A stretch of DNA of 64,000 nucleotides from assembly GCA_963575745.1 (NCBI GenBank), contig CAUYUJ010000214.1, positions 434,001 to 498,000 of the forward strand. The letters are read 5' to 3'. The stretch comes from Prorocentrum cordatum. Its lineage: Eukaryota. Both the position numbers and the translations under genes were made by a program. Below, in pieces: positions 2,303-45,003 of the stretch. The notes under the pieces were generated by a model, which ran no database searches, was not told where the DNA came from, and saw only the letters and a program-made list of their open reading frames with translations. Position 1 is the stretch's first letter. Every line of letters starts with the position of its first letter.

Positions 2303-2619
2303 GGGGTGAACGAGGAAGTGGTGCGGAGCCTCCCAGGCGGGGGCCGCCGGTGCTCGGCGTGCCGGGCGGCATGCTGGCAGTCGCCCACGGTGCTGGAGGT
2401 TGTCCACCGCGGGGCGGCCGTGGAGCGGCCGTGGGACGCGGCCGCGCCTGCCCGCGGGGGCCCTGCAGCTCGCGCTGGCGGCCCCCTCCCGAGCGCGGCC
2501 GGAAGGGCTCGCCTCGGTCGGGTGCTCCTGGGCTCGGCTGGCGGGCGGCCGACCGATGCCACGCCCGCTGCAGGGGCCGACGTGGGGGAGCAGCGCTGTG
2601 AGGGGCGAGTGCCGCTCGT

Positions 2620-3149
2620 GTCGCCCATGCCCGAGGAGGCCCCCGCGGGCCCGCTCGGCGAGGCTGCGGCGCAGCATGTCCGGCAGCAGGCGTCGCGCAG
2701 GTGCGCGCGAGCGACGGACGTCTGGCGCTCCACCGCGGCAGCGGCGGTGCAGCGGATCGCGCGGGGGCGGCCAGAGCGGCGCGTGGTGGCCGCTGCGAGG
2801 GCAGCCAGCAGCGCCGCGAGCAGCCGCAGCCCCATGCAGCGCACGGGGCCGCCGCCCCCGCCCCAGGAGGGGCCGCGGACAACTGGCAGGAGCGTGCTGG
2901 ACGTTCCACGGAGCTGGTCGACGATGGCGACGCGGTGGCGGACACGCGCGGAGCGGCGGTGGTCGACGCGGGAGCTGATCGAGACCAACCTGACCGTCTA
3001 CAACCAGAAGCACAAGGCGAAGGCCTGCAAATACTGCAAGGGCGAGAAGCACGTCCCTCCGGACTCGCGGGCCTGCCGCCCGCCCGGCCCCCGGCACCCG
3101 GGGCTGGGCGACAGCGCGCGCGGCGGCCCCTAGGGGAAGGGGACGAAGG
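2620..3149 (+). pseudogene. Decayed coding relic (gag/zinc-knuckle-like) interrupted by the copia insertion; continues after 21075
   Basis: ELIETNLTVYNQKHKAKACKYCKGEKHVPPDSRAC. Removing the element restores a continuous frame GGP*GKGTK|VSAIPADDADDKLPDEDIQEAQAE. Confidence 0.4.
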
Positions 3150-3346
3150 TGTGAATAGAACCCGTGTAATACCCTCATATATACTCCTTATCCTCACCTC
3201 TCCTGCGCCTGGCCGTTTGGGCTCAGGTATTGGGACAGATCGATCAGACCTTTGATCGTGCAGGAGGGAAAGACATCCATCTATCCCTCCTTCCCTCTAC
3301 CAACGGATCAGGGGTTCTGTACCCTTGTACTTCAACCCCATGCACA
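3150..3346 (+). repeat. 5' LTR (197 bp)
   Basis: TGTGAATAGAACCC...CCCCATGCACA; matches 20874-21070 with 7 substitutions and no indels by eye (about 96%). Confidence 0.97.
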
Positions 3347-3358
3347 GGTTATCAGCCC
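3347..3358 (+). promoter_or_regulatory. Primer-binding site, half-tRNA(iMet) type
   Basis: GGTTATCAGCCC abuts the LTR end. It is 11/12 identical to GGTTATGAGCCC, the complement of the initiator-Met tRNA anticodon arm used by Ty5/copia-type elements. Confidence 0.75.
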
Positions 3359-4083
3359 TTTAAAGCTCACCTTTCACCGAACCGCACGTTGCGACCTCGC
3401 ACGCGGTCTCGATGGAGCCCCTGCGGCGCATGCGCCGCAAGGGGTCCATCGGGGCCTCGCGTCCGAGCTCTCCGACGGCACGACGGCTCGGTGACGAGTT
3501 GGAGAGCCTTAGTGCGGACTGTGTTGGTGTTCCAGATACCCCCCCCCCCCCAGCTCCGACGGACCCGAGGCGCGGCTAGCTGCTGAGCTTCACCGCAGCG
3601 CCGCCCGCGGGGGGACAGGAGAAGGAGTAGGAACAGGAAGGAAGGAGTTTCACACGCCTACCTTCGATCCTCCATCCCCTCCCCCGTCGGGGGCAATCCT
3701 AACCGCGTCAGGCGAAAGCCTCGCTGGTCATGACACTCCAGGGCGCTTTCGCGCTAACCGCCGATGGACCTCAGGCGCTGGCACCCCCAGCCCTGCGACC
3801 GTCCCCGTGGCGGAGCACGCAGCCACCTTCGAGGAACTCAGTAGACCAGTGGCGGCACAGCCGCAGACGCAGTACCCCAAGGTATCATCGGACGAGACAC
3901 CACACACACATGGTCCGAGTCGCAGCTCGTCCGCACGCAATCGCCGTGGAGCCCCAGGCCCATGCGGCGAGAGTAGGTCGAGCCCGCGTACTGCCTCTCA
4001 GAGGCCATGCACTCCCCGTGACAGGGGACACAGGGAAGCTGACGCTCCCCACCTCTCCATCTCAGACGACCAGCTGGCGGAAA

Positions 4084-6973
4084 ATGTCCGCCGCATGTGA
4101 AATAGCTGAGCTCAGAGACCAGGTTGAAACCTTCGTGTCCAGGCAATATTCTGGACTACTGCAGAGCGTTCAGACGAACGCCGCCGATACTGCAGCCATA
4201 CGCCACGATCTGGACGGCGCCTTAGGGATCATTGATTCCAGGATCGCTGAAGATCGACGCATCATAGGTGAACTGCAGTACCAGGTTGATCGTGAGGTGT
4301 CACACTCAGGTGAACGAACGGCGATGGTCGAGAACCTGCGCAACTACCTCGCGCAGATGGAGCAACAGCTTGTGCTCGTACGCGACACAGGCGTTTTAGC
4401 AGTCAGGATTTTACATGATGAGATCCACGACCAGCTCCGCAACCGACCAACACCAGCCGAGGCCACCGACCTTGGCGACGTTCAGTCTCAGATCAATGAT
4501 CTTCGATCTTATCCAGACCACACTACGGTGACGCTTCGCAACGAAGCACACACCAACTCGTCGAACCTGATCGACATGTTGCAGCGTACTGAGAGAGTCA
4601 TCACTCAAAGGCTTGATGCGACCAACGCTGTCGTGCAGCCACTCGCTAACCGGATCTCTGACATTGAGCAGCGTTTTCCTGGTGTGCAGGACGCCCTGGC
4701 AGAGTTGCGTGTCGGACGAGCCCAGACTGGCCAGCTGGATTCTCCTCCCACGGTTTACGATTTCGCCCGCCTCACTGACAGGTTGCAGGAGGTTGAGAAG
4801 GCGGCGGACCACACGCAGTTGGAGCTCTCCCAGGTTATTCGTGAAAGAGATACTGAGAAGGTACGTGTAGAAGGTCACCTCGCACGTCTGGAATGCGAGC
4901 TGGAGGCACAAAGCGCCCGTCTCCGAGCACGCGAGCAACGACTTGATCGGCATTCACAACGTTCTCGGGATACTGATGAGTATACACGCCAAAAGGTGGC
5001 ACAAATACACGAAGACATGGCGAACTGGACGAATCAGCTGATCGACCACACCAACGACACCAATCTCCACCTTCGACCTGCAACCGACCTGCACAGGCCG
5101 ACGGCAGCGTCCGCCGAAGCAACACATGCCTCTGCAGGACAACAACGACGTACGTCACCAGGAGCAGCCTCCGCGGCAGCTTCTTCACAGACACGCCAAT
5201 TGTCTCCTGTGCGCACAGAACCAACTACTGACGGTGCACCGATACCCTCACAACCATTGTCTGCGGTTTCGGTCCATACTACAACTCGTATCAAGGAGTC
5301 AGACACCGTCCGAGTCCCTGTCTTGCCTAAGATCACGCAGCTGCTCGAGTGGCAGCAAACAGTACGGAAGAACTTCGGGGCCGCCTCAGGGCGACCATCC
5401 AAAGCGCACGCCTTCCTATGCGTGGCTGAACAGCCCGAATGTACATTCGAGGACTTACAAGACAGTGGAGACTTCGAGAGCATCGATTGCAAACTCGCTA
5501 CCGCTCTGAGCGACATCTTATCCTCGGACTTGCGCTACCAAATCAGGCTCATCGAAACCAGAAAGCACAAAGCAGGACGCATGCTCAAAGGACGCCAGAT
5601 TTACTGGCATATCCTACAGTCCTACAAAGTGACAGAGGTTGATGACGACCTGCACGACTTCGAGCGCCTTAAAGAATTGAGGATGAGAGATGACGATTTG
5701 CAACGTTTTATTACTGACTGGGACGCTTTACTCTTGGAGTGCCGAGAAGCACCCGATCCAAAGATCTTGGAATCTCTGTTTCGTACACAGATTCGGAGAC
5801 ATGCCTGGATGAAACAAGACATGTACGATTACCAGCGCATGAAGATCAGCGACCCGAATCGTACCTATGATTGGCCCCGACAGCGTGTCCTGGACATACT
5901 GGAGCTTAAACAATTGGAGAAGAATCAAAACAAGTTACGGTACGAACATGAGACACGTTCTCAAGTCAACGCGTGCGCTGCCTGGAAGAAAGGCAATTGT
6001 CGCAATGGTGAACGGTGCAAGGCTTTGCATACATATTCCAGGGATTGGAAGAACAACAAATCTTCCAGAACATCGACGGCTGGTGGCAACTCCCGCCGCA
6101 GCATGTCCACTCCTGCGAATCACAAGAAGCCAGCATCGAAACCATTTTGCTCCGATTTCGCCAAGCGCAACACATGTACCAGAGGCGACAAGTGTAACTT
6201 TCCACACGTCGCACAGTGTAAAGATTTCGCACAGAATAAGTGCCCCAGAGGCGATAAATGCAAATATGCTCATCTTACACCTGGTGCGAAGACTCCCGAG
6301 CGAAGCCCGAGTCGACCACGGACCTCCAGCCAGGATAGCCGCGGCCGATCACCATCCCGCGGATCAGGAAGCCAACGTTCTTCACAACGCGGGGGGGTCC
6401 GCTACGCAAGCGACTCGCGCCATGGACGTGACAACCGACGCCAATACGACCGATCTCGTTCAACATCCAGGAGGTCCCCAGACTCTCGCAGTCAATCGAG
6501 AAGTCGATACGACAGATCTTCGAGATCTACCTCCCGAGGGCGGACGCGGTAGTCCACGCGGCCGTGATAGGTCATATGGCAGTGACAAAGGACGTGGCAG
6601 ACGTTCCCCGGGCCACGGTTCGTCCCGTGGCTCACCCCACGCTAGAGCACGTTCTCCTGCCAACTTTCGACGTTCACGCCGTTCCGACCGCAGTTACGTC
6701 ATCCGTGACAAGACCCTCATGGCCAACACTAAGGCCACAGCGACATCTACCAAAACACGTCGTCGGATACGCTTCGACATACGTAACGTGGAATACTATT
6801 TACATACCGTATCTGGCAGGGCCAGATTGGACAAATGGAAGGAGATGCCGAACGAGGGTGACATCGTCAATGTACCAGACCCGTTACCACAACGATGGTG
6901 GGATCAAAATGCGGACGCCCTACGAGAATGTCAAAAAGAGGCACAGCTATGGTACGACGACCTATATGACTAG
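4084..6973 (+). pseudogene. gag: Gag-like region: coiled coil, capsid-like core, three CCCH zinc fingers, RS-rich tract
   Basis: ORF 3730-6552, with a probable ATG at 4084. CX7-8CX5CX3H occurs three times at 5974-6273. The RS/RG-rich run continues in the next frame after a single extra G near 6538 and reaches a TAG at 6971 that is in frame with pol. Confidence 0.85.
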
Positions 6974-9900
6974 CGTCACAATAAAGAGCCGGTGGCCACA
7001 CCAACTGCGATCCGAAAATATGACGACACTGTTAAGCAGTCATCAAAGACAGCCCAGACGAATACAACGACAATGCAAGTCGACCCACCACGCTCGACTG
7101 CTGCATTGACACGGTCTTGGTTTCTCGACAGTGGTTCTGCTCATCAGATTCAGGGAAACCATGAACTAACGCAGACCGAATCGGATCGCATATCTATTCG
7201 CGAAGAGCATATTCTGGAAACTGCCAATGGTGATCGTACTGTCGACGAGCACTACGACATACGGCTACCCGAGGTCGGCTTACACAGTTCAGCCCTTGCC
7301 TTGCCAGATTGTCCATCTTTACTATCAGTTGGGAAATTGATCGAGGTTGATGGTTTTCGGCAGCTTTGGGATCCTGAGCTGGGCTACTTGCTTCAGGATC
7401 CGGGGGGCCAATGGTATAACATTCCAGTCAACAATAGAGTTCCAGAATTACGACTCGACGACCTGACACTGATGCCACCACCACGCCTATGCACTTCGTC
7501 AGCACCCCGACGTCGTCAGCGCAAGCGTTCATCCGCCCGCTGCAACGACATTTGCTGGTGCTGCAAAACTACAGAGCAGTCAACCACTGCAGAAGAGCTA
7601 CGGCCCCACATAGGGACCTGCCCCAAGAGACCACATGTCGGAGAGGGAGGAGGAGCACGGACCACCGCGGTCGAAGAACTTCCCGACACAAACACAGACG
7701 AGCCTAACGTGGACACACCCACCGACTCGCCTACGTCTCAGACGCAGTGTCCTCCTCTACAATGCGGGGGGGTAGTAGATATAGCTCAAGCAGATAACGA
7801 CATACCGACAGAGACGCCCGCGCGAATGCATCACGACAATGATCGAGTTCTCCCCAACAGACAGAAGAAACCGATCGACCCGATGCATTACATGACTCAC
7901 AGCCCAAAACACCTTGACTGTGAGATCTGTTCTCGTACGATGGCGCAGAATGCCCCGTGTAGACGACAGCGCAAACCACACCCACCGGCAGATCCCACCG
8001 ACGAGGATAACGCCTACGAGGCTTTTGTCCCGAAGAAGTTTGGCGAGGCTTTAACTGCCGACCATATCGTCCTGGCCAAAGACGATGCCGCGGACAAACA
8101 CGGCGACAAGTATGCACTTGTTGTCCTAGACAGATACACCGGCATCTTCATGGCCTACCCAGCACTACACAAAGACGCAGCTACCACAAAGGCATCCTTT
8201 CAACAGTTCATCGCCGCGAACGATGAGGTGCAGCATATCTATACAGACAATTCTGGAAAGCTTCAGAAAGCTCGCCGCCAACTGGGATGGAGACACGACA
8301 CGAGTACGCCACATCGTGCGCAAACGAATGGATTGATTGAGCGCGTCGTCAAAATTGTCATTCTCGGTACGAGAGCTGTGTTACATATGTCTGGTCTGGG
8401 ACACGAATGGTGGAAAGAGGCCATGCAAGCCTTTTGCTCTGGACACAATTTTGTGCATGCATCCACGGGCGTGGCTGCCCTCAATGAGGAGCATGCAGAT
8501 AAGACAGCTCATGAACTACGCTTTGGTGAAAGCTTTCCCGGGCACTGCATGCCATTCGGTGCTCGAATCTTCTGGAAATGCCTCAACCCCGAGATTAACA
8601 ATGAGACTGCGAAGTTTAAAGAAAATACTCGGGAAGGGTTATTCATGGGTTGCCACTTACATTCTGGTGGGCGATGGTCAGGTGACTATCTTGTTTTGGA
8701 TACGGCTACATATGCCAAGAATCCTGATGGTGAACTGTGCCACGTGTACAGTATCAAAGACATCATCATCCCTGGTGGCAAGTTCACCTACCCAGTGAAA
8801 GAAGGTACTCTGCGACATTATAACCCTGAGGCACACGACGAGGTCAAGGCATCCACTTCTCGCCCCTTGGGTGATAAGCCAATGCCCGATCCTCCACTTT
8901 CCTACCCTACGGAATGGGATGACCCATCTATGCTGACAACGGAGGACAACGCCGCTGATATCCAAACATCGGCTTCTGGAGTTGCTGCACCAGCGCCGGA
9001 GCCCGACTACTGGGAACAGCGCGGATATTGCGTCATCAGACATATTCGTACCCCACGCAAGAAACTGTTCATCCCGACGGACGACGTCATGAACATACCT
9101 GTACCTGTTGATCAACTCGATGTGACACGAGATTTCAGGACAACTTTTACTTTTGAAGGAGAAAGTGACTTTCGAGATGTTTGGGATGGTGTTAGCGCCA
9201 ACGACCACAGGGAGTTAAGCGAGCCGTGGACAGGCACGATTCAATTCTATGAGCTTCCAAAAATGACGCCAGACGGCAAAATGGTGGTTCGCGGACGCGA
9301 GACACGTATACAGACGACTACACGTCCTGATCACATTCTTCCCGAGCATTGGACAACACTCTCTCGTGGACAACAAAAGAAGGAAATCGACTACGCCAAC
9401 GACGTTAAACGGGCTCGTGAGATTCGTGACCGAGCTGCACTAAGAGTGTGGACAAGACAGGACAAACAGGTCAACAATTTCCGTACCACTACATCCGGCG
9501 GACCCACATGGAATACTGTGGAACGACGGATTACATACGACACTGACAATGGCGCCGTCATCCGTGATGAAAATGTCAAAGGCGTGACAAACAAAGGAAT
9601 ACTGTATGCCAAATTACCTGGTGGGCCACGTGACATTACTACGGTACTGTACTACCGCCAATCACCACAACAGCACGATGGAGAAGAACGCGCTTTGGTA
9701 CTTGTGGATGGTGAAGGAACCGACTTTGGGACCATGAACCCCCTCATACGCCAGTTCACCCAGTCGGTAGCAATACCAACTATGCCACGTGAGACCACCT
9801 ACATACTGGCACACAGGGATAAAATACCTGATCCCTCATGGTCACGCCCGGCACTAGTTACCAGAAGCCTGAGTAAGACAGAAGTTGCCGCAGAACCACG

Positions 9901-12186
9901 TGCACAAGAAGCCCTACGAAAAGAATACGAGAGATTGGAAAAGAAACAAACGTGGATGTTGGAGACTGTTGCAGAAAAGCTGATATTGAGTCACAAGCTA
10001 TCCGCACTGGGACGGAAGTTCATTTCTTCAATATCTTAGAGCTATCTTCAGTCAAACACGAGGAACTTCCACCTGATCTACGTAAATTCAAAGGCAGAGT
10101 GGTGGTTCAGGGCAATGCAGGCAAAGATGAAACTGGCTTGGCCGCAATATTCGCCGACGCCGCTTCCAGTGCTTCACATATTGAGGCTTCCAAACTTTGC
10201 GATGCTACTGCATTATTGCCACAATATGCGGGAGAACAAAGTGATGCACCTGGAGCCTACACACAGGCATTATTATACGGCGACGGACGAATCGATCCAG
10301 TTGATACCTGGATTACCATCCCTGAGTGGCGACAACCGACATCCTGGTCAAAATGCAAAAATCCAGTGTGCCGATTGCGATTGGCTCTATACGGACACCC
10401 TCTCGCAGGTGTCTTTTGGGAACGAAAATGCCGTACGTGCTTAGAAAGCGTTGGTTTCGAGCTTATTTCAGGATGGGAATGTGTATGGAGACACAACAAA
10501 CTGGGACTGATACTTTCAGTATATGTGGATGACTTTAAATTAGCCGGCCCAGCTCACAATCTACAGACTGGCTGGGATTATATTCGCAAAAGCGGTATTG
10601 ACTTGGATCCACCTACTCCATACTCACAATTTTTTGGTTGTTGACAACAGGCATATGAGGTACCGCAGACTATCTTCGACAAAAGAATGTCTACCATACG
10701 CCCTATGTTGCCCGTGCACAATGAGAAAGATTACAATGCGGCCAAACAAGTTCGTGGAATTCGACATCATATGCTTGGTTTTATTGATCAGTGCATTGAG
10801 CGATACCTGGAATGCGCCTCCAAGCGCGTCCAGGGACCAGGGTCGCGTCGGAATCGATCCGACTCGCCGAGGACTTCGCGATCCAAATCGCCTGCATCCT
10901 CCAGGTCGGTCGCCAGACCTACTAGTGTGCTCAATGCACGGCCACGATCATCCAGCCCAGCAAAATCGGTCGACACGACATCTACCACGACAGATCCCAT
11001 ACCCGTCACATACGATGACCTACCTGACGCCGAAACTCCTGGCATCGAGGACACCTCCTTCACGGATTCCGACTATTCCGACGAGGGCGTCCTTGGCCAG
11101 GACGCGGCGAGTGTACCAATGAAGATCCTATACTTGGCACGTTGTTGTCGTTTCGATCTTTTACATCCAGTATGTATGATGGCCAGAGAAATTACAAAAT
11201 GGAATACTACGTGTGATAAACGTCTACATCGGTTGATATGCTATATCAAAACGACGCGCACACATTGTGTGCACGGATGGATAGGTGATTCGTCAGACAA
11301 GTTATCCATCATGCTCTTCACTGACGCCTCGTTCGCCGATTGCATTACATCATCCAAATCCACTACCGGCGTTTTCGCCGCGCTTGTTGGACCCAATACG
11401 TTCTTTCCAGTCAACGCTGTATGTAAGAAACAAACGGTTGTGTCACATTCATCGACTGAATCCGAGATCGTTGCCCTTGACTCAGCACTGCGACTGGAAG
11501 GATTACCACTGCTCTCACTCTGGGAAGCCGTGGTGGGAATTGCCAAAACATGCAAAGAGAAGAATGCATGCCTGAGCTGCCATCGACACGCCGACCCGGC
11601 AATGTGTTCGACGTTGGCAGCCAAAAAGAAGCGTAAGCCATCGCCTCGCAAGGCACCCCCTACACGGGGATCTTCTCTCAGCCGTAGGCAACTACCGCTA
11701 AATACGGAATTGCACACGCCTCCAAAGAGACGTACAATATCCCATGAGGGTACAGTATTGCACGTGGATCCAGAACCGGCTCAAGAGATTAGTTCTCCCA
11801 AAGTGCGACTTATCGCCCTCGAGGATAACCAGGCCGTGATCAAAATTGTCCAAAAAGGACGTACACCAGCACTTCGTCATCTTCATCGTACTCATCGTAT
11901 CAACCTGGATTGGATATGCGAGACGTGCCAACTCGAACATATCGAGCTCAAATACGTAGGTACAAAGGAGCAGGTCGCAGATATGATGACCAAACATTTC
12001 GAGACGAAGAAAGCAGACCTTTGGAAGGATCTCTTGGAACACTCGCTCATCTTTCCCGCTACCCCGATACAGTGTCCTCCAAAGAAACCCTGGAAACCAT
12101 TGCGAGGGCCTCGAAGGCCCGATGGTTTACCTCATGTTGCGGAACCTCCAAAACTGGATGGATGCCCTGAAGTATGCAAAATATGA
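6974..12186 (+). pseudogene. pol: Copia Pol (aspartic protease, integrase, reverse transcriptase, RNase H) with one frameshift near 9977 and an internal TGA at 10642
   Basis: Protease WFLDSG (DSG at 7127). Integrase HYMTH..CEIC (7886-7930) and TADH/YTDN/NGLIER DDE (8060, 8246, 8339). RT KFKGRVVVQGN, ALYGHPLAG and YVDD (10522). RNase H FTDAS (11323), SHSSTESE, EDNQA, ADMMTK. Confidence 0.95.
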
Positions 12187-14907
12187 CTTACAGAAAAAGA
12201 AAGATGGGGCGAAGTAGGATCAGAATGTGGATTTCGGTGCGTGGGACAAGCCAATCACGAGGGAATATGCGCATGCATGTACCACATTGGCGTACCGGCC
12301 GCAGCTATTGCGTCGCGCACACCTCGTTCACGCGCACGTTCCCCGCACGGTAGACATCCCCGCCATCCTTCCTCGCCTCCACAAGATGCAGAGAGATTTA
12401 GAACATTACTTATACGTTCATGCCGCAGCAATTTTACGACTCGAGCTACAAAGCTCACAGGCCTTCTGTTCGCCACGTGCGAGGCGAAAATAAGCGAGAT
12501 CGGTTCTAATCCCGGTACCCCCATCCACAAGATGGATCAGGCACAGCCGCTCAACCTCATCGGCTGGCCCATCGGCTACGACACGGAGTACGACTCGAAC
12601 GCCAAGGATGACGACCGCGTGGGCTTCACGTACCACGCTCAAACTGGCCGTCCTCGTGATCCTGATGATGGTTACATATACATACATCAACGGCGTGCTG
12701 ATCGCAGTGGAGAGTTTGATCTCCGCGTACCCGACGAATCCACTATTCGAGAAATTACCCGCTCTGCGTCCGCCGACGCCAAGAGTTGGATCAATGACAC
12801 GAATGGATCTGTCGGCGGCGACGCCAACTATGACTACAGCACGTTTACTGCTACACCGTGGCTGTCATTCATGCGGGCTATGTGTATGCTTTCCAGTCTC
12901 TTCAATCGTAATCCGTCTGTACGAGAAAGTGTTCGTGGTTTACATGATCATTTGAACGCGGTGATCCCAGGAACGCACCGCAAGTGCCCACCAGAGAACT
13001 TTACGACGATGATATTGAAAACGGAGTGGATGATGATTCACAACGATTGGTCCAAGATTGGCAGTGCAGTACTGGGACAATATGCCGAGGACAGCGTTCA
13101 GGATACACAAATATACTATTCAAATGGTCTTTGTGCACCATCCGATGTATACAGCAATGGATTGATAATTCCATGCGATGCTCCTAAACTTGATCGTACA
13201 ACGGCTAAGTTACCTACACGCCCACCTGGCGTAGCCAGGACATCAGATACATCTGGACACATCGGCCACATTGTTGAGGATAAGTTGGTCACCAACATGA
13301 GAGCATTTTCCGACCTTAACCAAACAAGCAAATTTCGCCGCAAGTTCACCACATGGTTGACGGCGCGCGGAGGCTTTGGAGGTATCGGATCACACCCCAA
13401 GACGGTGGCAACACCATCCGATCATCCAGAAGGCTGGGTGGCAATATCAGAGCATGACGGGGATATGACAAGTACCTATCGTTGGCAACCGTACAACGAG
13501 GGCAACGACTTCTTTGGCGAAGCCGCTGACCAGATCGACCCTGGTCTTACCCCTGGCCCTGATGTTGACCCACTCGAGCTGGACCAAGCAAAGTACAGCG
13601 CTTTCTGTGGTGGTCGTTTGGTTTCTACTCTTCTTTCAGATAATGGGTGGTGTTCCCTCGTACAAGAAGACTTGGGACTACTCTTGCATCATGCATTTGG
13701 TCCATCAGGGCACGCATGCAAATGGACCAACTTATACACCGACTCAACGTGGATTATGCAGGCCAAGAAAGGGGCCAAGAGCGCAAAACACAAGAAGTAC
13801 CCAACTTACGGCATCGACGAGCTCAACACTGCACATAAGCGAGAAGATCTCGCCAAGGCATCAAACGTTGCTCTCGTACCGCTGTTTATGCCGTGCCTCA
13901 ACCGCGCGGAATACATGGGCGGCGCTACTCTCGAGCATTTGTCGACCATGATCCGCGACGACATCATGATGTGGGCATTCTCCTTTGGCAATTATAAAGA
14001 ATGGTTCAGACAGAACGACACGCCGATCGGCCAAGATTGCGTTCGATTGCCAGAGGCTGGTGGAGACACCCGCTATGGTATGGGGGAGCTGCGTAACCAG
14101 CGTTTCGAAACACAGGAAACCCGTACCACAGCTATTCTCAACAACCAATGTGAGTGCACTCTCGAGCAGCGCAACATGATCAAGATGATCCGCGAAGCCA
14201 GAGGCCTCATGTTACACGGCGACAATGCCTCCATCAAAAAGTGGCGCGAGTTAAACGAGACTATCTGGAGCTACTGGGCCAATGATTTTCCAGCATATGT
14301 GAAACAAAGACATTATTGCAGGGGCCTCAATGCCATGGTGGTATGGAGCGCGAATGACATCGCATGCGCCAACCACGGACAGAACACCGTGGACATGCGT
14401 CGACATCAAATCCGTGCACCTACTGACGTATACGAGCTCCAGGAAATGGAATGTGAGGGTGGCGTCCCGACGCTCATGCCAGTACACGTGCACGTGGACG
14501 TATCACGTTTTGTCGATGTGATGCAGTACTTCCGCTGTCCCACAATCATGGGGCCTGGCCAAGCAGCACAATGGGGCGCACACCCGAACTTTGATCACCA
14601 CACGAACGACCTGATCAATATTATGCAAAATCGTGGTATCACTGTTCTTCCAGCAGATCACTGGGTTGAAGCGTACGATAGGATTACCCCGCAGGCTTGG
14701 CACGCAAAACAGAACAACCATAACATGGCGATGTTTACAACACAGTTCTGCGACGCAGTATGCTATCGTAACTTCTGCGCTTTGATTCAGTCACTGCCCT
14801 CTCAACCATATCCATTCAGGGCGCCATTACTGATTCCTGTCACGGATGAGCAGGCCTACACACAGGCCAAAGAGATCATGGCTGCTCTCGACTTCAGAGA
14901 AAGATGA
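12187..14907 (+). pseudogene. Cargo ORF 1, in frame with RNase H: Cys/His-rich linker plus SGNH/GDSL-hydrolase-like domain (about 13720-14790)
   Basis: Same frame as RNase H, separated only by TGA at 12184. Blocks LYTDS (13732-13746), GGAT (13918), VVWSAND (14338-14358) and QAWH (H at 14701) occur in the order of SGNH blocks I, II, III and V. Confidence 0.55.
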
Positions 14908-16080
14908 CAAACGAATGGAAAAGAGATCTCAGCCTCACGACGCTGATGACACAGACGGCAAGCGAAATGGCTCGTTGTGCGTGGATGGCACCATGTGCCG
15001 ATGGTACGTTGCCGGCATCACTGCCTGCTGACGCAGGCGACACAACGGAACCTATTCCTGGAATGCCGAAACGGACACCAGCACCTGATCCTAGCGAGCC
15101 AGACAAAGCTATCCCTGAAAATGAACCATGGGGTGTAGCATACGACGACTTATTCCAGTACCTCATGCTGTTGATCAACGGCTACCCTGGGGCGTGGGCA
15201 TCCTGGCATTCAGTCGAGAAACAAGAGCTCCTCCACCCCAAGATCATTAAAACGGTTGAAGATGCACATGCAGTTACTTGGGTTGTGTTCGAGCAGCTTT
15301 TACAACAGATTACTGACTCGGATGGAGATGATAACGCGACCAAATCACGACTCACTGCGGAAAACAACAGGTTGACTTCTCACTGCATCGGCCCTGCTGC
15401 CGAGAACGAGCGGACCATCATAGCATGCGAAACATTCTTCAGGCAGAATGCACTAGATCGCGTGGCATTGGGATATGATCCTGATGTTCCGACGTCCGTG
15501 CGGCGTGCGGCGGCTGATACAGAACAGCCAGCCCCACCAGGCCCATTGCCTGAACCACTGCAACCTGGACCGCAATTGTTAGACGTGCCACAGTCATCGA
15601 CTCCTGGACCAACAGCAGACCAGCAGCCAGCATATCAGCTCCCAAAGGCTGAGGCGGTACCGATCCCTGACGACGGCACTGACCTAGAGGCCATGGAGCT
15701 GGAGGCAACTCCTGCCGAAGAGGAATCTTCTCCACACGAGGTGAATTTATTATCATGGCAGGACAGCTGCGAGCGTTCCATGCATGAGGACATCAGCCAG
15801 GCCGGGATGTTCGATAACGCATGCACTATTCGAGAGTGGAAGCTGCAAGCGGGCATCAAGGACGACCATCCATACGTATGTCCACTACTGCGGGGTACAT
15901 CCGCGATCAATGGATTCGCCTGCCTGGAAAACAATGACTGGTACGAGCAACTGTTACACGATGATTGTGATTGCTCACGCGCCTGACATTGCACAGTCTG
16001 GTTGCTTTCCAGAATGGAAGTGGATATCGTTACCAAATTACGACGACGTACGTTATGGTCCCGAGTTACTTGATGATGAA

Positions 16081-16930
16081 TGGCTGGGAGCAGCCAAATA
16101 CATGAGCAAAGACATCACGACCATGTTACGCCACGAGATTCACTACAAAAAGTTCTATATCAATCAATTTCACGATAGACGTATCAACATTTGGACGAAA
16201 ACAACATATCGTGAATGGACTATTCCAAGCAATTGGAAATCCTTTCAGGAAATGGTTCAATGGAAATTCAAAGATCGCAATGACCACAACGGGCCGTCCA
16301 TGGACGCGGCCGTGTCACACTTCAAGAAAGATGGTGAAAATGATGGATATGCCGATTCGAACGATTATTACCCGATCTTCATCATTCGTGCGTTCCAGAA
16401 ACATATTGATCCGCAGAAAAATAGAATTGAGATATACGCCAAACCAATCCCCGAGGGAGGTGACCCCAGCTGTTTCGATTGGAACAGCGTCATTGCCATT
16501 CGATGTGTAGGGGGTCACAGTTGCGTTAATCCACTTCCAAACCATGGAATATGGGCTGGGAGAGCCTACAATGGACAGACGTGAAATACCTCCACCACGG
16601 CACAGCAGCCCGTGCTTGGCGCAACATCTTGAAGACAGGGATCATTCCAGGCTGCGTTGATCCATCTTCTCAGAGCGACAAGCATCATAAACCATCACAG
16701 CGAACGGAGGCATTCTTCAGTTCCAGCACATATTTAGACAATGCCCAGAAGAATCCCCACACCTCAGTAGAGTCATATGAGTTCTATCACTACAAGAACG
16801 AGGTCGAGCTAGTGATCAATATGGAGATCGCCACAAAAGCAGGTTGCAGATTTTGGCTGGGCGCTCAAGGCGCTATCATGACAGAGGACGTGGTTCCAGC
16901 TGCGGCAGTTATTGCCATTCGCCGCCTCAA
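16081..16930 (+). pseudogene. Tpt1/KptA-like RNA 2'-phosphotransferase (NAD+-dependent ADP-ribosyltransferase fold) inside the retrotransposon, frameshifted near 16548
   Basis: SKDITTMLRH (RH at 16129-16134), KNRI (R at 16423), IRCVGGHS (16498-16521); after the shift YLHHGT (HGT at 16596), ILKTGIIPG, RTEAFFS, LVINMEIATKAGCRFWLGAQGAIMTEDVVP. These match the Tpt1 motif series SK.L...LRH / K.R / IRA.QGHS / HGT / I...G / R....S / I.....A...G..F....NG..L....P. Confidence 0.82.
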
Positions 16931-17725
16931 ACCACATCACATGCACGGCCAGCAGATATGGCCAGACGGCGCCACATGGGAGTACCCGCCATTGGCCGCG
17001 AGACCGCCATTGAGCAAATACGAGATTTGCGCCTATCTTCCTGGAGAGTTCATCGAAGACCCCCCTGGGATTGCACCTGCTGGCACGGATCAGAACATGG
17101 AGCAGCCAAGGACAACGTCAGCATCCGCACCTTCGGCTCAGCTGGGGGCAACCCCTGCTAGCCGTATATATGGAGCCGATGCCTTGGATGAGCAAATGGT
17201 CCGTGCTATGATTGCGGGCACCAAGCACAAAGCAGATGATAAAGAATGGTTAATTGCCCTGTCATATTGCCGAGAGGCTCTGCGACCTATTACATCAAAG
17301 ATTACACAAAAAGATTGGGATCGTCGGCCTGCAATTAATGATGTTCGCATGGGGGACTTCATTATCATTAAGAATTGGGGATCTATCAAATGTTATCATT
17401 ATGACAACCACTACCCCAAAGGCAATCACAATACCAAGGTCCCCATGGATAAGGGCCACATATATATGTCCCAATCATTCATTTCGGAGTCTTTGACAAG
17501 TTCTTCGCGGTACAGATACCTATTCTCAACTACGGTTTACGAGGGGTGAACATATGGTACAATGACAAAAGCATGCCTCTCAAGGGCGTTGTCGTTGCAT
17601 TACCAATTCGTATCGACGAACATGCCATTGACCCGGCATAAAAGAATACTGTCCTGGAGGGACCATCCTCATGCCGTGACAAAATATTTCAGCACAAAAC
17701 TGATGGCAGTCTGCCATATCTTGGT

Positions 17726-20191
17726 ATGCCGAGCATTTATAGGCCACGCATTCCACGTACACCGACCAGACAGCCCGCCCCTCGGACACCCGATCCCGAA
17801 GAGCTGGTGGCCACACCTGCTGAAGATACCGCTCCTACGGACGATGGACCTCAACAAACTGCAGGCTCATCTGATGAACCTTTGGTTGCCGTTATCGTGA
17901 ATATATCAAACATATCGCTCACCGCTGAAGAAAAAGCAGCAAATGACAATATGAGAGCAGATCTATCAGCAGAGATCCAAGCAGACGAGCACGTTGATGC
18001 GAGCATACTCGACAACGTTATTGACCCGCCAGAAGATTTCCTCAACCACCCAGACTACGACCCAGAGGAGGATTCAAGGTGGAAAAAACAGTCATACGAC
18101 CGCCGTATACACCGCTGGACGTCGGAGTTGTTGGTGGATTCACCTATGATAAAGATGAAACAAATCATTGAGGTACACACTGGCGCGGACAGAATTGTGG
18201 TTGACAAAACACAATCGCACTTACGATTTGAGATTCAATTTGGATCCAAAGCATGGAATGCAGAGAAATACTATTTGAATTATGATCACACCCACACATG
18301 GGCACGCGACTTGCCAATTTGCAGTGCAGACCGCTTTTTCAAAAAGTTGGTGCACTACCTGGACCCAGAGAACATCGAGGAGTCGACGACAGGCGTCTTT
18401 CAATGGATCTCCAAAGTATATCAAAACATATTGATGGACAGTATTGCGGAGCTCCGTGGCTTCACAAAAGATGCCATCCATCAGAAACATCCTGCACTCC
18501 AAACGTTGCGTGATCTATTGAAACATTGCATCGACACATTCGGTAATCCAGACTTCCCCTTATGGAAGGAACTGGTGGAAACACCTGCCGCGCCACGTGG
18601 CCCAGGCGCGGAGCAGGATATTCCCCAGGACCCAGGCAGCGTTGCATCCGCAGCTCCTGATCAAGAAACCATGGTACGGATCATAGCCGAGCAGACGGGA
18701 GTCAACCGCGAGGAGGGCGACAACGGGTCCGCGTTGCAAGAGAAGGCTCGCCGTCTCCGTACTGAAAACGCATGCCATGGTGATGCCGATGATGCGGACA
18801 ACGACACAACAGAGCACATAGGACTGCCAGGGGAAAGATTGTCTAGGATCGAGATCGAGGGATTGAGTAGATCAATCGCTTCCCGACCGAATGCCGAGAT
18901 CAACCGCGAAGCCATGGACCAGATCGGCCGTAGTCTTGCTCGTGGTCAGGATACTCGCTGGGGATCCCGTGAGCACCTCACGACGGAGGGAGCCCCAGAA
19001 ACGATCCTGCATGATATCGCGCGATGTCGGAATTGCGGTCGAGACTTACCCCTTGGGATCGTCACAGGTGATGGTGCCCTTTGTGACATCTGTTGGCAGT
19101 ACACCGTGGCCGTAGGTGCTACGGGTAAAAGTACCGCCGCCCAGAGCGACCTAGCATACCTCCACAAGCTGACCAACTGGATCAAGATGACGCCCTCCCA
19201 GGATGACATCACGAGGTACATGAGAGACGGAGCGCAAGTCATTATGACGGGCGCGCGCTCATTCCCAGGTAATGAGAAAGATTCGCTGAGGAGAATGGCT
19301 AATGTGTCTAGAAAGAGGTATCAGAAGTGGGTCGACTCTGGTCGCCCTCCTGCACACGAGTGCAGACTGATGGGCGAGGCTGGTGACGACAGACCTCTGT
19401 ACTACCCATATGCCAATCTCGCTCAGCGCTTTCTCAACGATTTGAAGTTCCACCACCAAATGACAGGCGCTCGCGTGAACGTGGGCAAGAAGGCCTGGAA
19501 CGTGGACGACATGCGTGATGCATGCACGATCCTCGATACCAGCATCAGGACAGGACAAACTGGTCGGAAGAAAGGGTGGCTGAACGAGGGCAGACTCGAC
19601 AGGCAAACGCGGCAGGCTCGCGGACTTGTCACGATTGCCCCCCCTAGAAGGGATGGCACCCGTGAGAAAGTCACGCAGCGCAAGCTTGCTGCGATTGCTA
19701 GCGAGTTGTTGGGCTCCCTCGATCCGTCACATACCGACCAGAGGGGGGTTGATTCAGGGATGAGAACCGATCCGATCGAACCTGATACACACTCCCATCA
19801 GTCTGATGATGCCATGGGCCCGCGCCATCCACCGCCGCCGCCGCGCCCTGCCCCTGGCGATGCTGCACAGCCCAGCGCCTCTGGCGCGGCGGACCACATG
19901 CCCGCGGGGCCGCGCGCCAAGAGAGCGCGTACCACGGATTACGCCGCCTACTGGCGCGACGACCTTGAGGACAGTCATTGGGGTCTCAGGTATTGGAGCT
20001 ACTACATCAACTGTTGGATCTACATCGCGATGAACAACGACGAGTTCGTATACATCCACGACATCCAGTACAACGATTGGTTTCGTCACTGGATCCCGAG
20101 GACATATTGGGAGATGTTCACGACGAGCTACGCGACGTACAATGGCCAGAGGATGTGGGACCGCAGGTTCTACAAGAACGGCAACGCGTAG
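17726..20191 (+). CDS. Cargo C-terminal ORF (821 aa), function unknown; C4 zinc ribbon and W/Y-rich C-terminus
   Basis: Long clean ORF inside the element. CRNC-x15-CDIC at 19025-19093. The frame extends upstream to about 17465 across one TAA (17639) and joins the Tpt1-containing frame through a 2-nt slip in an (AT)n run. Confidence 0.7.
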   Translation: MPSIYRPRIPRTPTRQPAPRTPDPEELVATPAEDTAPTDDGPQQTAGSSDEPLVAVIVNISNISLTAEEKAANDNMRADLSAEIQADEHVDASILDNVIDPPEDFLNHPDYDPEEDSRWKKQSYDRRIHRWTSELLVDSPMIKMKQIIEVHTGADRIVVDKTQSHLRFEIQFGSKAWNAEKYYLNYDHTHTWARDLPICSADRFFKKLVHYLDPENIEESTTGVFQWISKVYQNILMDSIAELRGFTKDAIHQKHPALQTLRDLLKHCIDTFGNPDFPLWKELVETPAAPRGPGAEQDIPQDPGSVASAAPDQETMVRIIAEQTGVNREEGDNGSALQEKARRLRTENACHGDADDADNDTTEHIGLPGERLSRIEIEGLSRSIASRPNAEINREAMDQIGRSLARGQDTRWGSREHLTTEGAPETILHDIARCRNCGRDLPLGIVTGDGALCDICWQYTVAVGATGKSTAAQSDLAYLHKLTNWIKMTPSQDDITRYMRDGAQVIMTGARSFPGNEKDSLRRMANVSRKRYQKWVDSGRPPAHECRLMGEAGDDRPLYYPYANLAQRFLNDLKFHHQMTGARVNVGKKAWNVDDMRDACTILDTSIRTGQTGRKKGWLNEGRLDRQTRQARGLVTIAPPRRDGTREKVTQRKLAAIASELLGSLDPSHTDQRGVDSGMRTDPIEPDTHSHQSDDAMGPRHPPPPPRPAPGDAAQPSASGAADHMPAGPRAKRARTTDYAAYWRDDLEDSHWGLRYWSYYINCWIYIAMNNDEFVYIHDIQYNDWFRHWIPRTYWEMFTTSYATYNGQRMWDRRFYKNGNA

Positions 20192-20862
20192 GGAGTCGGC
20201 CGCAAGGCTCACCGCTCAAAGGCTTGAACTTCATTATAATTCAAGTTCGCCTTGAGCGGTGGCTATTACATACTTCTAGGCCACTTCGCTATACAACACA
20301 AGTGGCCACATATACAAACATCTTTTGCGATAACCGAGGCAACCTCCTACGGAGCAACGCCAACGGGGGTCGCCAAATAGAGTTTATATACATGCAGCTT
20401 TCGCGTTTATCAACACGACATTTCGTCTGGCCAGACACTTGCTTTTACATGCAGTTGCGTTCCGTAGCACGATCGCGTTCATCAGCGCGATCTTAGCGTG
20501 CATATTCATTACAGTATAACTACATTGCGCTGAGAATAATCTGACAGCTGGTGGCAACACCTGCCTCGCAAAGGCGAGGCAGATTACAAGTTGCTTTATT
20601 GTTCAGCTCTTCTTTCTCCGCCCACCCTTGTCTCATTCTTCTCCGCCCTCGAGTGCCGAAGCGTTTTGGGGGGCGCACCGAGGGGGCGCCAAAGTGTGCT
20701 TGGCGAAGAAATGGGGACCCAGGGTGTTCCTTCTTACTTTACTTTGCAGCTGAGGCTATACTGACTTTAAGCTCAGCTGCCTGCAGACCTGAGGATTAAG
20801 GAGTAAAAGGGTGACGGATTATTTTCCTCTGTTCCCGAGTCCTACCCTCACGGGCGGGATTC

Positions 20863-20873
20863 GGGACGGGGGG
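20863..20873 (+). promoter_or_regulatory. Polypurine tract
   Basis: GGGACGGGGGG immediately 5' of the 3' LTR. Confidence 0.8.
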
Positions 20874-21070
20874 TGTGAATAGAACCCGTGTAATACCTTC
20901 ATATATACTCCTTATCCTCACCTCTCCTGCGCCTGGCCGTTTGGGCTCAGGTATTGGGACGGATCGATCAGACCTTTGATCGTGCAGGAGGGAAATGCAT
21001 CCATCTATCCCTCCTTCCCTCTACCGACGGATCAGGGGTTCTGTGCCCTTGTACTTCAACCCCATACACA
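20874..21070 (+). repeat. 3' LTR (197 bp)
   Basis: TGTGAATAG...CCCATACACA followed by the TSD GAAGG. Confidence 0.97.
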
Positions 21071-21269
21071 GAAGGTATCGGCGATTCCAGCCGACGATGC
21101 CGACGACAAGTTGCCGGATGAGGACATCCAGGAGGCGCAGGCGGAAGGAGCCGCGCTGGCGGCCGGGCCCGCCCCGACGCCTCGAGGAGCAGGTGCGGCG
21201 CAGCTCTGGGCGCCGAGGCCTGGCGACGGGGCTCGCGCCAAGCAGCGGCGGTGGGCCAAGACGCGACGG

Positions 21270-21329
<60 letters not shown>

Positions 21330-24192
21330 AAATCGGCCAGCCGCTTCAGGAGATCGATTCTGCGCAGCCGGGGGAGCCGAGGGCGCAGTCCCTCGGTGGC
21401 CCAGGATGTCGGAGCCCACGGCCCCCGTCCGACAGGACACCCCCAGCGGGGCGAGGCGGTCGGGTTGCGGCGGGGTCGCCGGGGCCGCTCGGCCGAGAGA
21501 ACCGCCGCAGCACGGCAAATTGCCGCCGCGGTCGACGAGGAGCTCGAAAGGCTCGGCGCACACCGAGCAGGTGGCCGAGTTGCTGGCCGCTCGGGGGACT
21601 TTCGCCGTCGTCGGGGCGGAGCAGCGCGCGGCGGTTGGCTCTCGGGCGCCGCGCGGAGTGGACCCGATGCCACAGCAGGCGCGCAATGGAGACCTGTCTG
21701 GGAGCGCCGCCGCCCTGGAGCGGCCGTCGCCGCGGCACACGGGCGAGCGGGGGCGAGAGGCTGGCCGCCTCGCGGCCCTCGCCCGCTGGGCCGCCGAGGG
21801 CTCGCGGGCCGCCGAGGCCGCCGACGAGGCGCCCCCGCCGCCGCGCCTGCGGGCGCCCGCGGCTTCCCGACGCGGCTCCTCCGGGAGCTGCGGGAGCGGC
21901 CGCCTGCGGGCGCCTGCTGGCTCGGCGGCCCGACGCGCGTGGGGGCGCGCGGCGCGGGGCCGCGCGCGGTCGGGCCGCTTGCGACCCGCGCCGTCCGCCC
22001 TCGATCCCTCGATCCCTCCTCCTCCTCCTCCTCCTCCTCCTCCTCCTCCTCCTCCTCTTCCTCCTCCTCCTCCTCCTCTTCTTCTCCTCCCCCTCCTCCT
22101 CCTCTTCTTCTCCTCCCCTTCGATCCCTCCTTTTCCTCCTCCTCCTCCTCCTCCTTCTCCTCCTCCTCCTCCTCTTCTTTTCCTCCCCCTCCTGCAGCGA
22201 GCCCAAGCTGCAGGCGGAGGAGCGGAGGGAGCCAGGCGCAGAGTCGTGGGAGACACTGGAAGGAGGGGGAGGAGGGAGACGGAGCCGGGGAAAAGAGGAG
22301 GAGCGGGAGGAGGGGGAGGAAAGAGGAGGAGGAAGAGGAGGGGGGGAGGGGGAGCAAGCAGAGGAGGGAGCTGGGACTCGGACCGGGGATGCCTTCCAGC
22401 CAGAACAGAACCCCCAACTGCCCTGCCCGCACCCGTGGCTCGTATTGTTATCCAACGCACAGCCCGCGGGGTTACAACGGCCAGTTCTTCTACTGTAGCA
22501 CCGGTGCGCGAACATCTGTATGTCAAGAGCCCAGCCACTATGTCCTGCCCCAGGGCTGGAAGCGGTCCATCCCAGCAACCAACGACAAGTTCTACTAGCA
22601 CGACGAGCGGAACAATATCATCCGCAACGGCCCACTCGCACCACGATGTGCAGGGCAACCACCAGCATCGCCCAAACCAGGAACACCATCGCCACCAGCG
22701 CGATCACCTTACGTCGTCACATCAGCCCTGGACACCACATTGCCAGCTACAGCCAGGACGACATCGACAAGAGACAACTCGACAATCTCATTGACAACAA
22801 CAAGGACATGACCATCGACCATCTCTGCGATTATGTCGAAGCCAACAAGGTGAGCGCCAGCCTCAACAACAACATCATGATGAGACTCAGTCCGATAATT
22901 CAAGTAGCTACGAGGGCATCACACGGGTCATCAACGAGATACAGACGGCAGCAGCACTGCCAGCGATCAGAATGCAGAACTACGACGACGACGACCACAT
23001 TAAGCACCGCGTCACCATTAACCCAGACGTCTGCCAGTCAAACGTGGCACAGGGGGCCCCCGAGCCCACAGGGCACGCTGACGACATGAATCAGGACAAT
23101 GGTAACTTGATCGGCCCCGTGACAGGCGACTCTTTCCAAGCGACCGCTGCAACCATGACGCCCGCCCCCCACCCCCGTCCCACAACGGTGACGGACCCCA
23201 GCCCTCAGGCAGCACCCGCGTCTAGAACCGACCGCTGGAAGGCACCGCCCACCGACGGCCAATTATCCCAAGCCGTCGCATGCAGTGTTCTTCCGCCGCG
23301 GCGCGAGAGGACGGCATCAGTTGACGCGGGAGACCTGTCGTTGCAGCCCGACGTCCAGCGCCAACTGACTGACGACAGGCGACTGGGCCCAAGGGCCAAC
23401 TACGGCAGCAGCGCCACACGCAAGTCCCAAGCGGTGCCCGCCAAACCGCCTCCGAAGCCGACGCCGCCCCTCCGCGACGGCCGACCGCCTCGCAGGACGG
23501 TAAGGCCCCGCCTCCCGACAGCGCAGCGAAGCAGGCCGCCACAGGTAGCATGACCACAGTACGCGAAGGAGCTGAGACGCCAGTCGAGGAGCCACAAATT
23601 GGAATTCGCACAGGAGCGATGACAGCGGACATCCGGCGCGACGCGGCCAACCGACTGGTCGACACCATAAGCACCATCTACCACGACAAGAACGCAAAGT
23701 TTGTTAGGATGCGCAGGCGCAAGATCATCAAGGACAGTCTGACCAACGCCATCAACCCACGCGCCATGCATGACCAAGCTCATGACCCACATCTGCGAGA
23801 TCGACACGAGCGCGATCAGATCATGAACAACCTCGCCGGCGCGCTGCCGAACAACCAGGGAAACCAGATTCGCCCACCACTCGCCCCATGCATCACGACG
23901 GCGAACCAGAGGGTGCTGACGCAGTGCGTTATGCACCCTCCGCGCAGCATAATGGCACACCCAACCACAGGCGACGCCCAAGATGCGACCTTTCCATGCC
24001 ACTACAATCCATCGCCGTTGCGATAAGATCGCCAGCTGCATCAGAGTTGGCTTGCGGGACGACCCGAACGGGGAATGGGCGCCATTCGCAACGACGGCAT
24101 TCCAGAGAGGCATCGCACGGGGCGCGACCCGCCACGCGACCAACTTGCCGCGTTCCCAGGAGCAGGAACAAGCGACCAAGACTACCCTGAAG

Positions 24193-30069: not shown

Positions 30070-30169
30070 NNNNNNNNNNNNNNNNNNNNNNNNNNNNNNN
30101 NNNNNNNNNNNNNNNNNNNNNNNNNNNNNNNNNNNNNNNNNNNNNNNNNNNNNNNNNNNNNNNNNNNNN
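30070..30169. other. Assembly gap (100 N)
   Basis: Run of exactly 100 N; contiguity across it is not guaranteed. Confidence 0.99.
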
Positions 30170-44099: not shown

Positions 44100-44154
44100 A
44101 TTTGTTGTTGTTTTGTTGTTGTTTTTGTTGTTGTTTGTTGATGATGATGGATGA

Positions 44155-44202
<48 letters not shown>

Positions 44203-44856: not shown

Positions 44857-44911
<55 letters not shown>

Positions 44912-45003
44912 CTGATGCTGATGCTGATGCTGATGCTGATGCTGATGCTGATGATGATGATGATGAGGAGGAGGAGGAGGAGGAGGAGGAGAAGGAGGAG
45001 GAG
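44100..45003. repeat. Compound (GAT)n/(GCT)n/(GGA)n microsatellite
   Basis: Direct inspection. Confidence 0.95.

Follow-up and report, generated by a model that had tools for sequence, protein, structure and literature searches.

The window analysed here, a 64,000-nucleotide stretch of Prorocentrum cordatum contig CAUYUJ010000214.1, contains a long terminal repeat (LTR) retrotransposon in which a chain of abutting or overlapping open stretches runs from 4084 to 20191, i.e. over 5,369 codons, or an open reading frame (ORF) of ∼16.1 kb. The individual stretches are 250-1,020 codons long and change frame along the way; such lengths are far beyond what chance would produce at a GC content of ∼52%. 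The element is, in our opinion, likely to belong, as a decayed copy, to a very abundant family of giant LTR retrotransposons of copia-like type, whose unbroken form would consist of a single frame of ∼5,370 codons. Gag would come first in this frame, with its coiled coil, its three CCCH fingers and a capsid-like part, ahead of protease, integrase, reverse transcriptase (RT) and RNase H; after these there would be ∼2,670 codons (∼8 kb) of additional coding sequence, hereafter the cargo, which would amount to about half of the polyprotein of ∼5,370 residues. The cargo itself would begin with a Cys/His knuckle, to be followed by a first unknown domain, an SGNH-like alpha/beta domain, another unknown domain, a Tpt1/KptA-like domain, a third unknown domain, a zinc ribbon and a Trp/Tyr-rich end.

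An earlier note on the window had proposed that LTRs, target-site duplication (TSD), primer-binding site (PBS) and polypurine tract (PPT) bound 17,921 bp, and these limits are borne out: GAAGG abuts the outer edges of both 197-bp LTRs, a PBS-like site is present and the unit measured from LTR to LTR is 17,921 bp long. A duplication of 5 bp is typical of copia elements. The divergence reported previously for the two LTRs was also found again, with 7 differing positions out of 197 (six transitions and one transversion), so that they are 97% alike, with a Kimura two-parameter distance of 0.037. The PBS-like site reads GGTTATCAGCCC, which may resemble the initiator-tRNA-Met PBS present in many copia elements; a PBS is complementary to the 3′ end of a tRNA.

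The frame is broken by four in-frame stops (TAG 6971, TGA 10642, TGA 12184 and TAA 17639) and by six frame changes (near 6538, 9974, 14899, 15965, 16540 and 17460). All ten had been listed in the earlier note, at positions right to within ∼10 nucleotides, and had been interpreted there as the decay of one long frame. This interpretation is supported, each of the sites being open or continuous in at least one sister copy or relative. Sister copies were sought among contigs from four public runs, originating from four studies, which were aligned to positions 2400-21900 at 85% likeness or more. In all the sister contigs covering codon 10642 (6, 10, 8 and 5 in the four runs) a different first letter makes a sense codon, and the same is true, with a different third letter, of codon 17639 (7, 3, 4 and 3 contigs). 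For the stops at 6971 and 12184, the sense codons are known from sister proteins, not from aligned contigs. Two more distant proteins, P0152 and P0154, are also open over the 6971 region, from the PDPLP motif into the protease.

As to the frame changes, the length differences at 9974 go in the direction that preserves a single frame: the part of the sister depth that is one A longer there is 641/2183, 327/1467, 50/166 and 65/123 in the four runs, and at 14899, where the protein P0032 reads across, it is 513/1146, 107/297, 19.5/77.6 and 45.7/98.7. At 15965, an extra 2 nucleotides are present in about half of the sister depth of each run. At 17460 the part that is 2 nucleotides shorter is 391/560, 48/54, 31/73.5 and 12.9/17.7. 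Near 16540, the protein P0157 continues without a break from what is frame-0 text in the window into its frame-2 text. At 6538, three contigs (two of X3, one of X6), when read by eye, keep frame 0 open into what is frame-1 text in the window, with a net difference of +17 nucleotides. We also considered, and rejected, programmed +1 frameshifting between Gag and Pol: the sister contigs differ in length at 6538 and stay in one frame, and since they keep frame 0 open across this site, no programmed frameshift is needed.

The number of contigs aligned was 10,793, 15,546, 2,808 and 2,089 for the four runs. Every bin from 3051 to 21278 was covered, with a summed depth of hundreds to thousands, compared to 0-1.5 in the flanking bins, and the likeness of the contigs to the copy in the window ranged from below 90% to at least 99%. 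Because of these numbers and of this spread, the family must be regarded as very abundant and as composed of copies of different ages. A single long joint was seen in the contigs, from LTR to LTR (3310 to 21036, in one contig), and none of the joints in the four runs skips the cargo; sister copies without 12187-20191, which the earlier note had named as a sign of a nested insertion, were thus not found among these contigs. Relative synonymous codon usage is correlated between core and cargo (r = 0.65, the values for a wrong frame and for flanking DNA being 0.12 and 0.15), and GC content at third codon positions (GC3) is ∼0.5-0.6 in both; overall GC content is ∼52% in the DNA of the ORF chain and ∼60-73% in the flanks. 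Full coverage, the absence of any joint across the cargo in these contigs and the shared codon usage together lead to the conclusion that the cargo is a part of the family, which excludes a nested insertion private to this copy. More generally, the idea that the 8 kb are an insertion or an assembly chimera peculiar to this locus, for which one could invoke the unusual length alone, has next to no probability when thousands of sister contigs lie over the cargo in four runs and the flanks have almost no depth, when there are no LTRs, TSD or repeats at the edges of the cargo, and when the frame continues through both of its ends.

The earlier note's reading of RNase H as continuous with the cargo is supported by database proteins. 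A search of 1.84 billion representative proteins, using as query the residues across RNase H and the first part of the cargo (cargo A), with X at the TGA, gave 4,989 matches at E ≤ 1e-3; among the 150 that were listed, the majority align to the RNase H part. All four of the listed proteins that reach the site of TGA 12184 have Leu (P0025, P0069 and P0046) or Val (P0004) at this position and continue into the cargo, and among the 150 listed matches none ends there. The conserved stop named beforehand as a finding that would speak for a separate cargo was therefore not seen. These four relatives are 87% (P0025), 83% (P0069), 60% (P0046) and 60% (P0004) identical; P0004, of 223 amino acids, spans EDNQAVIK...ADMMTKHF and then the Cys-rich start of the cargo. 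P0025 and P0069 bear the source label Pyramimonas sp., a prasinophyte green alga, which would put the host in Viridiplantae. As judged from these sequences, the cargo is in the same predicted frame as Pol in unbroken sister copies.

Another possibility is that the cargo consists of one or several separate downstream ORFs, comparable to the env-like ORF of SIRE elements, and that TGA 12184 is the true end of Pol, the cargo being then expressed by read-through, re-initiation or from a subgenomic RNA. The TGA is indeed situated ∼70 amino acids past the ADMMTKHF motif, which is about where copia Pol proteins usually end, and it is also there that Pol ends in a cargo-less metagenomic relative, L002 (1-2505; 44% identical over RT-RNase H), namely ∼27 amino acids past the ADxxTK motif. 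But this arrangement is difficult to reconcile with four out of four listed proteins having a sense codon and reading on, with a first Met of the cargo frame that comes only 31 codons after the stop and falls within the conserved Cys/His knuckle, and with a cargo in which there is no transmembrane-like segment; we consider it highly improbable. For want of such a segment, an env-like role of the cargo was likewise rejected. Because L002 ends Pol after the same motif, the fusion is a derived state of the family and of its nearer kin. L002 and a second distant locus, L003, were the outcome of searching JGI metagenome contigs with the RNase H alignment; the cargo query had no match in these contigs, and scans of IMG/VR found nothing.

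Three other metagenomic relatives of the RNase H, P0104, P0139 and P0040, each possess a long extension after RNase H, and these extensions differ from one another. That of P0104 (∼680 amino acids) displays GDS-like, GND-like and D-x-H-like motifs by eye, that of P0139 (∼400 amino acids) an H-x-D...H pattern reminiscent of 2OG-Fe(II) oxygenases, and that of P0040 (∼600 amino acids) is of low complexity. None of the three had a match in Pfam or among PDB sequences, and hhalign detected no relation between cargo A and the tail of P0104.

The core follows the copia order, i.e. protease, integrase, RT and RNase H (PR-INT-RT-RH), with the DSG, HHCC/DDE, YVDD and RNase H motifs. In Gag, three CCCH fingers stand in tandem at 5974-6273 (Pfam zf-CCCH, E 1.3e-12; spacing C-x7/8-C-x5-C-x3-H by eye). 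They take the place of the CCHC zinc knuckle which copia Gag proteins usually have, and which was not found in this one. The protease region had no Pfam match. For the integrase, the NCBIfam model of IS481 transposases gave an E value of 4e-7, and RVT_2 is the only RT family that matches the window and the relatives P0040 and P0090; the PDB sequence search returned nothing meaningful for RT-RNase H. The core also contains long spacers: ∼500 amino acids between the integrase core and RT (8400-10000), an Arg/Ser-rich segment that separates RT from RNase H (10900-11200) and an insert of ∼100 amino acids in RNase H (11560-11800).

Within the cargo, the region 16102-16886 is a probable Tpt1/KptA-like domain, as suggested by four weak but concordant sequence signals: Pfam PF01885 (E 3.7e-4, 21 bits for a cut-off of 26, over the NAD lobe only), PHROG 5470, RNA 2′-phosphotransferase (E 0.0066), a BLASTP match of the HGT block to E. 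coli KptA (E 4e-5), and the protein atlas, where ranks 1 and 3 are Tpt1 clusters with scores of 0.89 and 0.87 for a trust level of 0.9. Tpt1 has two lobes and an Arg-His-Arg-Arg catalytic tetrad, as reported for yeast Tpt1. When compared by eye to E. coli KptA, the motifs are collinear: LRH is present, NRIEIY stands for KKRFSY, IRCVGGHS for IRAVQGHS, HHGT for YHGT and QRTEAFFSS for ERHYVHLS. The likeness to the Tpt1/KptA family comprises LRH, IRxxxGHS with a preceding Arg, HGT with I..G after it, an Arg before a hydrophobic strand, and weak matches from two libraries. The differences are the location inside a retroelement polyprotein, the inserts of ∼50 amino acids in the N-lobe and ∼17 amino acids in the NAD lobe, and the scores below cut-off. 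The Tpt1 label of the earlier note can be kept as probable on the strength of the four concordant signals, the Pfam score being sub-threshold and the N-lobe without statistical support.

The other cargo domains are more elusive. Domain A (12187-14904) begins with the Cys/His knuckle, followed by an Arg/Ser/Pro-rich linker. When long relatives of cargo A were sought with a word-based search, the only one obtained was P0001, an unbroken fragment of 749 amino acids that is 41% identical to domain A; its being unbroken at this level of identity argues for long-term selection on the domain A protein. No usable protein-atlas match was obtained for cargo A. Two AlphaFold models, with a mean pLDDT of 45 and 57, are of moderate quality for A2 (13813-14781) and poor for the N-terminal half of domain A. 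In structural searches of the PDB with both models, the 50 titles listed for each are mostly GDSL/SGNH esterases, lipases and O-acetyltransferases: GDSL or SGNH is named in 10 of the 50 for the first model and in 5 of the 50 for the second, and ∼20 and 15 further rows, respectively, are esterases, lipases or O-acetyltransferases that we assume to share the fold. The best rows are 3hp4_A (Z 5.2, root-mean-square deviation (rmsd) 4.3, 156 residues) and 7tjb_A (Z 5.2, rmsd 4.9, 159 residues). Pfam, NCBIfam and PDB sequences gave no match for 12187-14904 or for its alignment. SGNH/GDSL hydrolases have a flavodoxin-like alpha/beta fold, with a catalytic Ser in block I, Asn in block III (GxND) and His in block V. 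The strand at the position of SGNH block I is VPLFMPCLN, without Ser, and its Cys is a Tyr in P0001; a WSANDI block at 14344 is kept in eight of the nine sisters covering it, and a W-H in most of those covering that position. The models hint at an A2 domain that is SGNH-like, perhaps not catalytic. Of the SGNH label given in the earlier note there remains, therefore, a weak fold match (Z of 5.2 at most), with neither an evident catalytic Ser nor a profile match. Domains B and E had no match in Pfam, NCBIfam, PHROGs or PDB sequences.

Several observations weigh against the view that this is a copy of a giant copia-like family with one long functional frame. The frame-shifted length of the window is found in at least half of the aligned depth at 9974, 14899 and 15965, and P0155 has the window's frame change near 16540 as well as the same stop. 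No single copy open from end to end was seen, the evidence being pieced together from short contigs and from proteins of 76-749 amino acids. When depth is summed, the cargo reaches only ∼0.3-0.45 of the value for the core, a ratio which is not a copy number. At the level of domains, integrase and RT score below the Pfam cut-offs: rve, at 8093-8317, has an E value of 2.4e-5 and 25 bits for a cut-off of 32.6, and RVT_2 has 25-27.5 bits for a cut-off of 31.6 (21.8-28.4 bits when P0040 and P0090 are included). Pfam does not recognise the N-lobe of the Tpt1-like domain, whether taken from the window or from six sister proteins, and hhalign gives it only an E value of 0.07. As for A2, Z values of 5.2 or less are below the safe level and could reflect a common arrangement, and the first model had no Foldseek match at E ≤ 0.001.

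One reason for the shared frameshifts could be that the giant elements form a non-autonomous subfamily of chimeric origin, with a cargo that is dead weight picked up from host or foreign mRNAs and plays no part in transposition, and that shorter autonomous relatives amplify it in trans. It would account for several frameshifts, one of them in RT, being common to a large part of the aligned depth, for the break near 16540 that P0155 shares and for the lower summed depth over the cargo, and a cargo-less relative, L002, does exist. Against it, domain A persists as an unbroken ORF at 41% identity (P0001) and the RNase H-cargo junction is open in P0004, which is 60% identical; besides, codon usage and GC3 of the cargo match those of the core and not the GC-rich flanks, and no joint in the aligned contigs marks a cargo-less form with these LTRs. 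We therefore regard this explanation as improbable and retain that of a family in which the cargo is part of one long coding frame. What the frameshifts common to many copies and the break shared by P0155 do indicate is that defective forms were themselves copied: some of the lesions in the window were probably inherited from a template that was already defective, which implies copying in trans, and others probably arose after insertion.

As to the function of the cargo in the retained model, we may only speculate. It would be made as part of Pol, cut out by the protease of the element, and might act inside the particle as a set of accessory nucleic-acid enzymes. The Tpt1-like domain could carry out the NAD+-dependent removal, or the ADP-ribosylation, of a phosphate on the element RNA, on the tRNA primer or on the cDNA ends. 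The SGNH-like domain might be an esterase, or else a module binding nucleic acids or lipids, as others have suggested for different retroelements (PMC5408684). A bolder proposal, which we judge rather unlikely but not far-fetched, is that the Tpt1-like domain is an active NAD+-dependent phosphotransferase or ADP-ribosyltransferase working on the element's own RNA, primer or cDNA ends, and that the clade captures enzymes into Pol. If so, the enzyme might cap or repair these ends, or hide them from host nucleases; an algal copia-like lineage would have doubled the size of its polyprotein by acquiring an enzyme block behind RNase H, and the extensions of P0104, P0139 and P0040 would suggest that the clade is a general platform for the capture of enzymes into Pol.

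The element is set in GC-rich simple-sequence DNA, with blocks at 552-1851, 2079-2302, 21270-21328 and 22015-22349. The repeats nearby are (CAT)n over ∼900 bp, (CCT)n on either side and (GA)n immediately beyond the 3′ LTR; a further match to the (CAT)n block, in opposite orientation, is found at 44103-45021. A 100-N assembly gap lies at 30070-30169. Between the PBS-like site and the start of gag there is a 78-nucleotide palindrome at 3393-3470 on the plus strand (80% over 80 nucleotides in a blastn self-match in reverse orientation), which may be a packaging or dimerisation hairpin. A blastn self-comparison detected no second copy of the element in the window, and neither a tRNA gene nor an Rfam family was found within the 64 kb. 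Among the 12 long ORFs outside the element none had a match at the Pfam cut-off, and two had sub-threshold matches only. The features of the element are collected in Table 1.

Table 1. Features of the giant copia-like element, in coordinates of the window
Feature	Position	Strand	Remark
TSD, left copy	3145..3149	+	GAAGG, same as 21071-21075
5′ LTR	3150..3346	+	197 bp, TG..CA ends
PBS-like site	3347..3358	+	GGTTATCAGCCC, directly 3′ of the 5′ LTR
ORF pieces, Gag to core	frame 0 4084-6549; frame 1 5843-6970; frame 1 6974-10036	+	
ORF pieces, RT to cargo A	frame 0 9877-10641; 10645-12183; 12187-14904	+	
ORF pieces, rest of cargo	frame 2 14850-15983; frame 0 15745-16581; frame 2 16530-17546	+	
ORF pieces, 3′ end	frame 1 from ∼17451; TAA 17639; frame 1 17642-20188; stop codon 20189	+	
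Gag	4084..6549	+	coiled-coil N-terminus, capsid-like part, three CCCH fingers, Arg/Ser-rich tail
Frame change 0 to 1	6538..6540	+	sister contigs diverge after 6539
Stop TAG	6971..6973	+	Tyr in sister protein P0151
Aspartic protease	7106..7423	+	DSG at 7127-7135; block conserved in 4/4 relatives
Integrase	7886..8400	+	HHCC finger 7886-7930 and catalytic core
Frame change 1 to 0, A run	9974..9977	+	in RT region
RT	10084..10638	+	YVDD at 10522-10533; Pfam RVT_2
Stop TGA	10642..10644	+	private to this copy
RNase H	11305..12000	+	insert of ∼100 amino acids; ends in ADMMTKHF motif
Stop TGA between RNase H and cargo	12184..12186	+	sense codon in sister proteins
Cys/His-rich knuckle, cargo start	12226..12285	+	conserved in P0004, P0046, P0069, P0031, P0129
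Cargo domain A1	12517..13812	+	41% identity to P0001 without break; model pLDDT <50
Cargo domain A2	13813..14781	+	alpha/beta core with helical insert; SGNH-like by weak fold match
Frame change 0 to 2	14899..14901	+	
Cargo domain B	14904..15962	+	no family match
Frame change 2 to 0	15965..15967	+	
Probable Tpt1/KptA-like domain	16102..16886	+	broken by frame change near 16540
Frame change 0 to 2	near 16540 (window 16500-16581)	+	inside the Tpt1/KptA-like domain
Frame change 2 to 1, AT run	17460..17462	+	
Stop TAA	17639..17641	+	private to this copy
Cargo domain E	17642..20191	+	CxxC..CxxC zinc-ribbon-like site 19025-19093; Trp/Tyr-rich C-terminus
PPT	20852..20873	+	purine-rich run just 5′ of the 3′ LTR
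3′ LTR	20874..21070	+	197 bp, TG..CA ends
TSD, right copy	21071..21075	+	GAAGG

Usual copia elements measure 5-9 kb and encode 1,300-1,900 amino acids. With Ty1/copia elements (Pseudoviridae), the present one has in common the TG..CA LTRs, the 5-bp TSD, the PBS-like site and PPT, the order Gag-PR-INT-RT-RH, RVT_2 as the only RT family, and Gag and Pol in one frame; it differs from them by its 17.9 kb, its ORF of ∼16.1 kb and the ∼2,670 codons after RNase H, by the three CCCH fingers in Gag, and by a divergent RT and integrase that remain below the Pfam cut-offs. Copia elements of the SIRE/Sirevirus type have an env-like separate ORF after pol, with transmembrane features. They share with our element the presence of extra coding sequence 3′ of RNase H, but here this sequence continues the Pol frame, is free of transmembrane-like segments and comprises enzyme-like domains. 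SIRE-type elements with an env-like ORF are mentioned in passing in a report (PMC5408684) that also describes the Vesta/Juno gypsy-like LTR elements of bdelloid rotifers, in which a GDSL esterase or a DEDDy exonuclease is encoded as ORF3; its authors proposed for these modules an auxiliary role in the replication cycle. The resemblance lies in LTR elements with enzymatic accessory modules, SGNH/GDSL included; those are animal and gypsy-like, with a separate ORF3 and intact S-G-N-H residues, whereas ours is algal and copia-like, with a module fused into Pol and no evident catalytic Ser. Domains fused into Pol are known as well: two other papers report a DNA methyltransferase (DNMT) inside Pol in Symbiodinium DIRS and Klebsormidium gypsy elements (PMC5890265), and an ALKB-type demethylase domain in gypsy elements of orchids (PMC9289625), the latter paper considering it a rare event for LTR retrotransposons to gain an additional conserved domain. 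Such elements also hold, in the Pol polyprotein, a host-type nucleic-acid-modifying enzyme kept by selection, but they belong to other superfamilies, the addition is a single domain of a few hundred residues, and none is Tpt1-like. A literature search covering main texts turned up neither a retroelement carrying a Tpt1/KptA-like domain nor an account of this giant family, in line with the earlier note, whose author did not recognise the architecture among described copia lineages. The copia kind itself is known; what is new is the size, the in-frame fusion of ∼2,670 residues after RNase H and the probable Tpt1-like domain.

Known cases, then, add one domain or a separate ORF, while here about half of the polyprotein is extra, in frame, and kept over a deep divergence; the polyprotein would be among the longest of any retrotransposon. 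The family fills a large share of an algal genome and bears on the question of how the large genomes of marine green algae were built. It also constitutes a natural system in which to ask which accessory chemistry of RNA or DNA ends retroelements can use.

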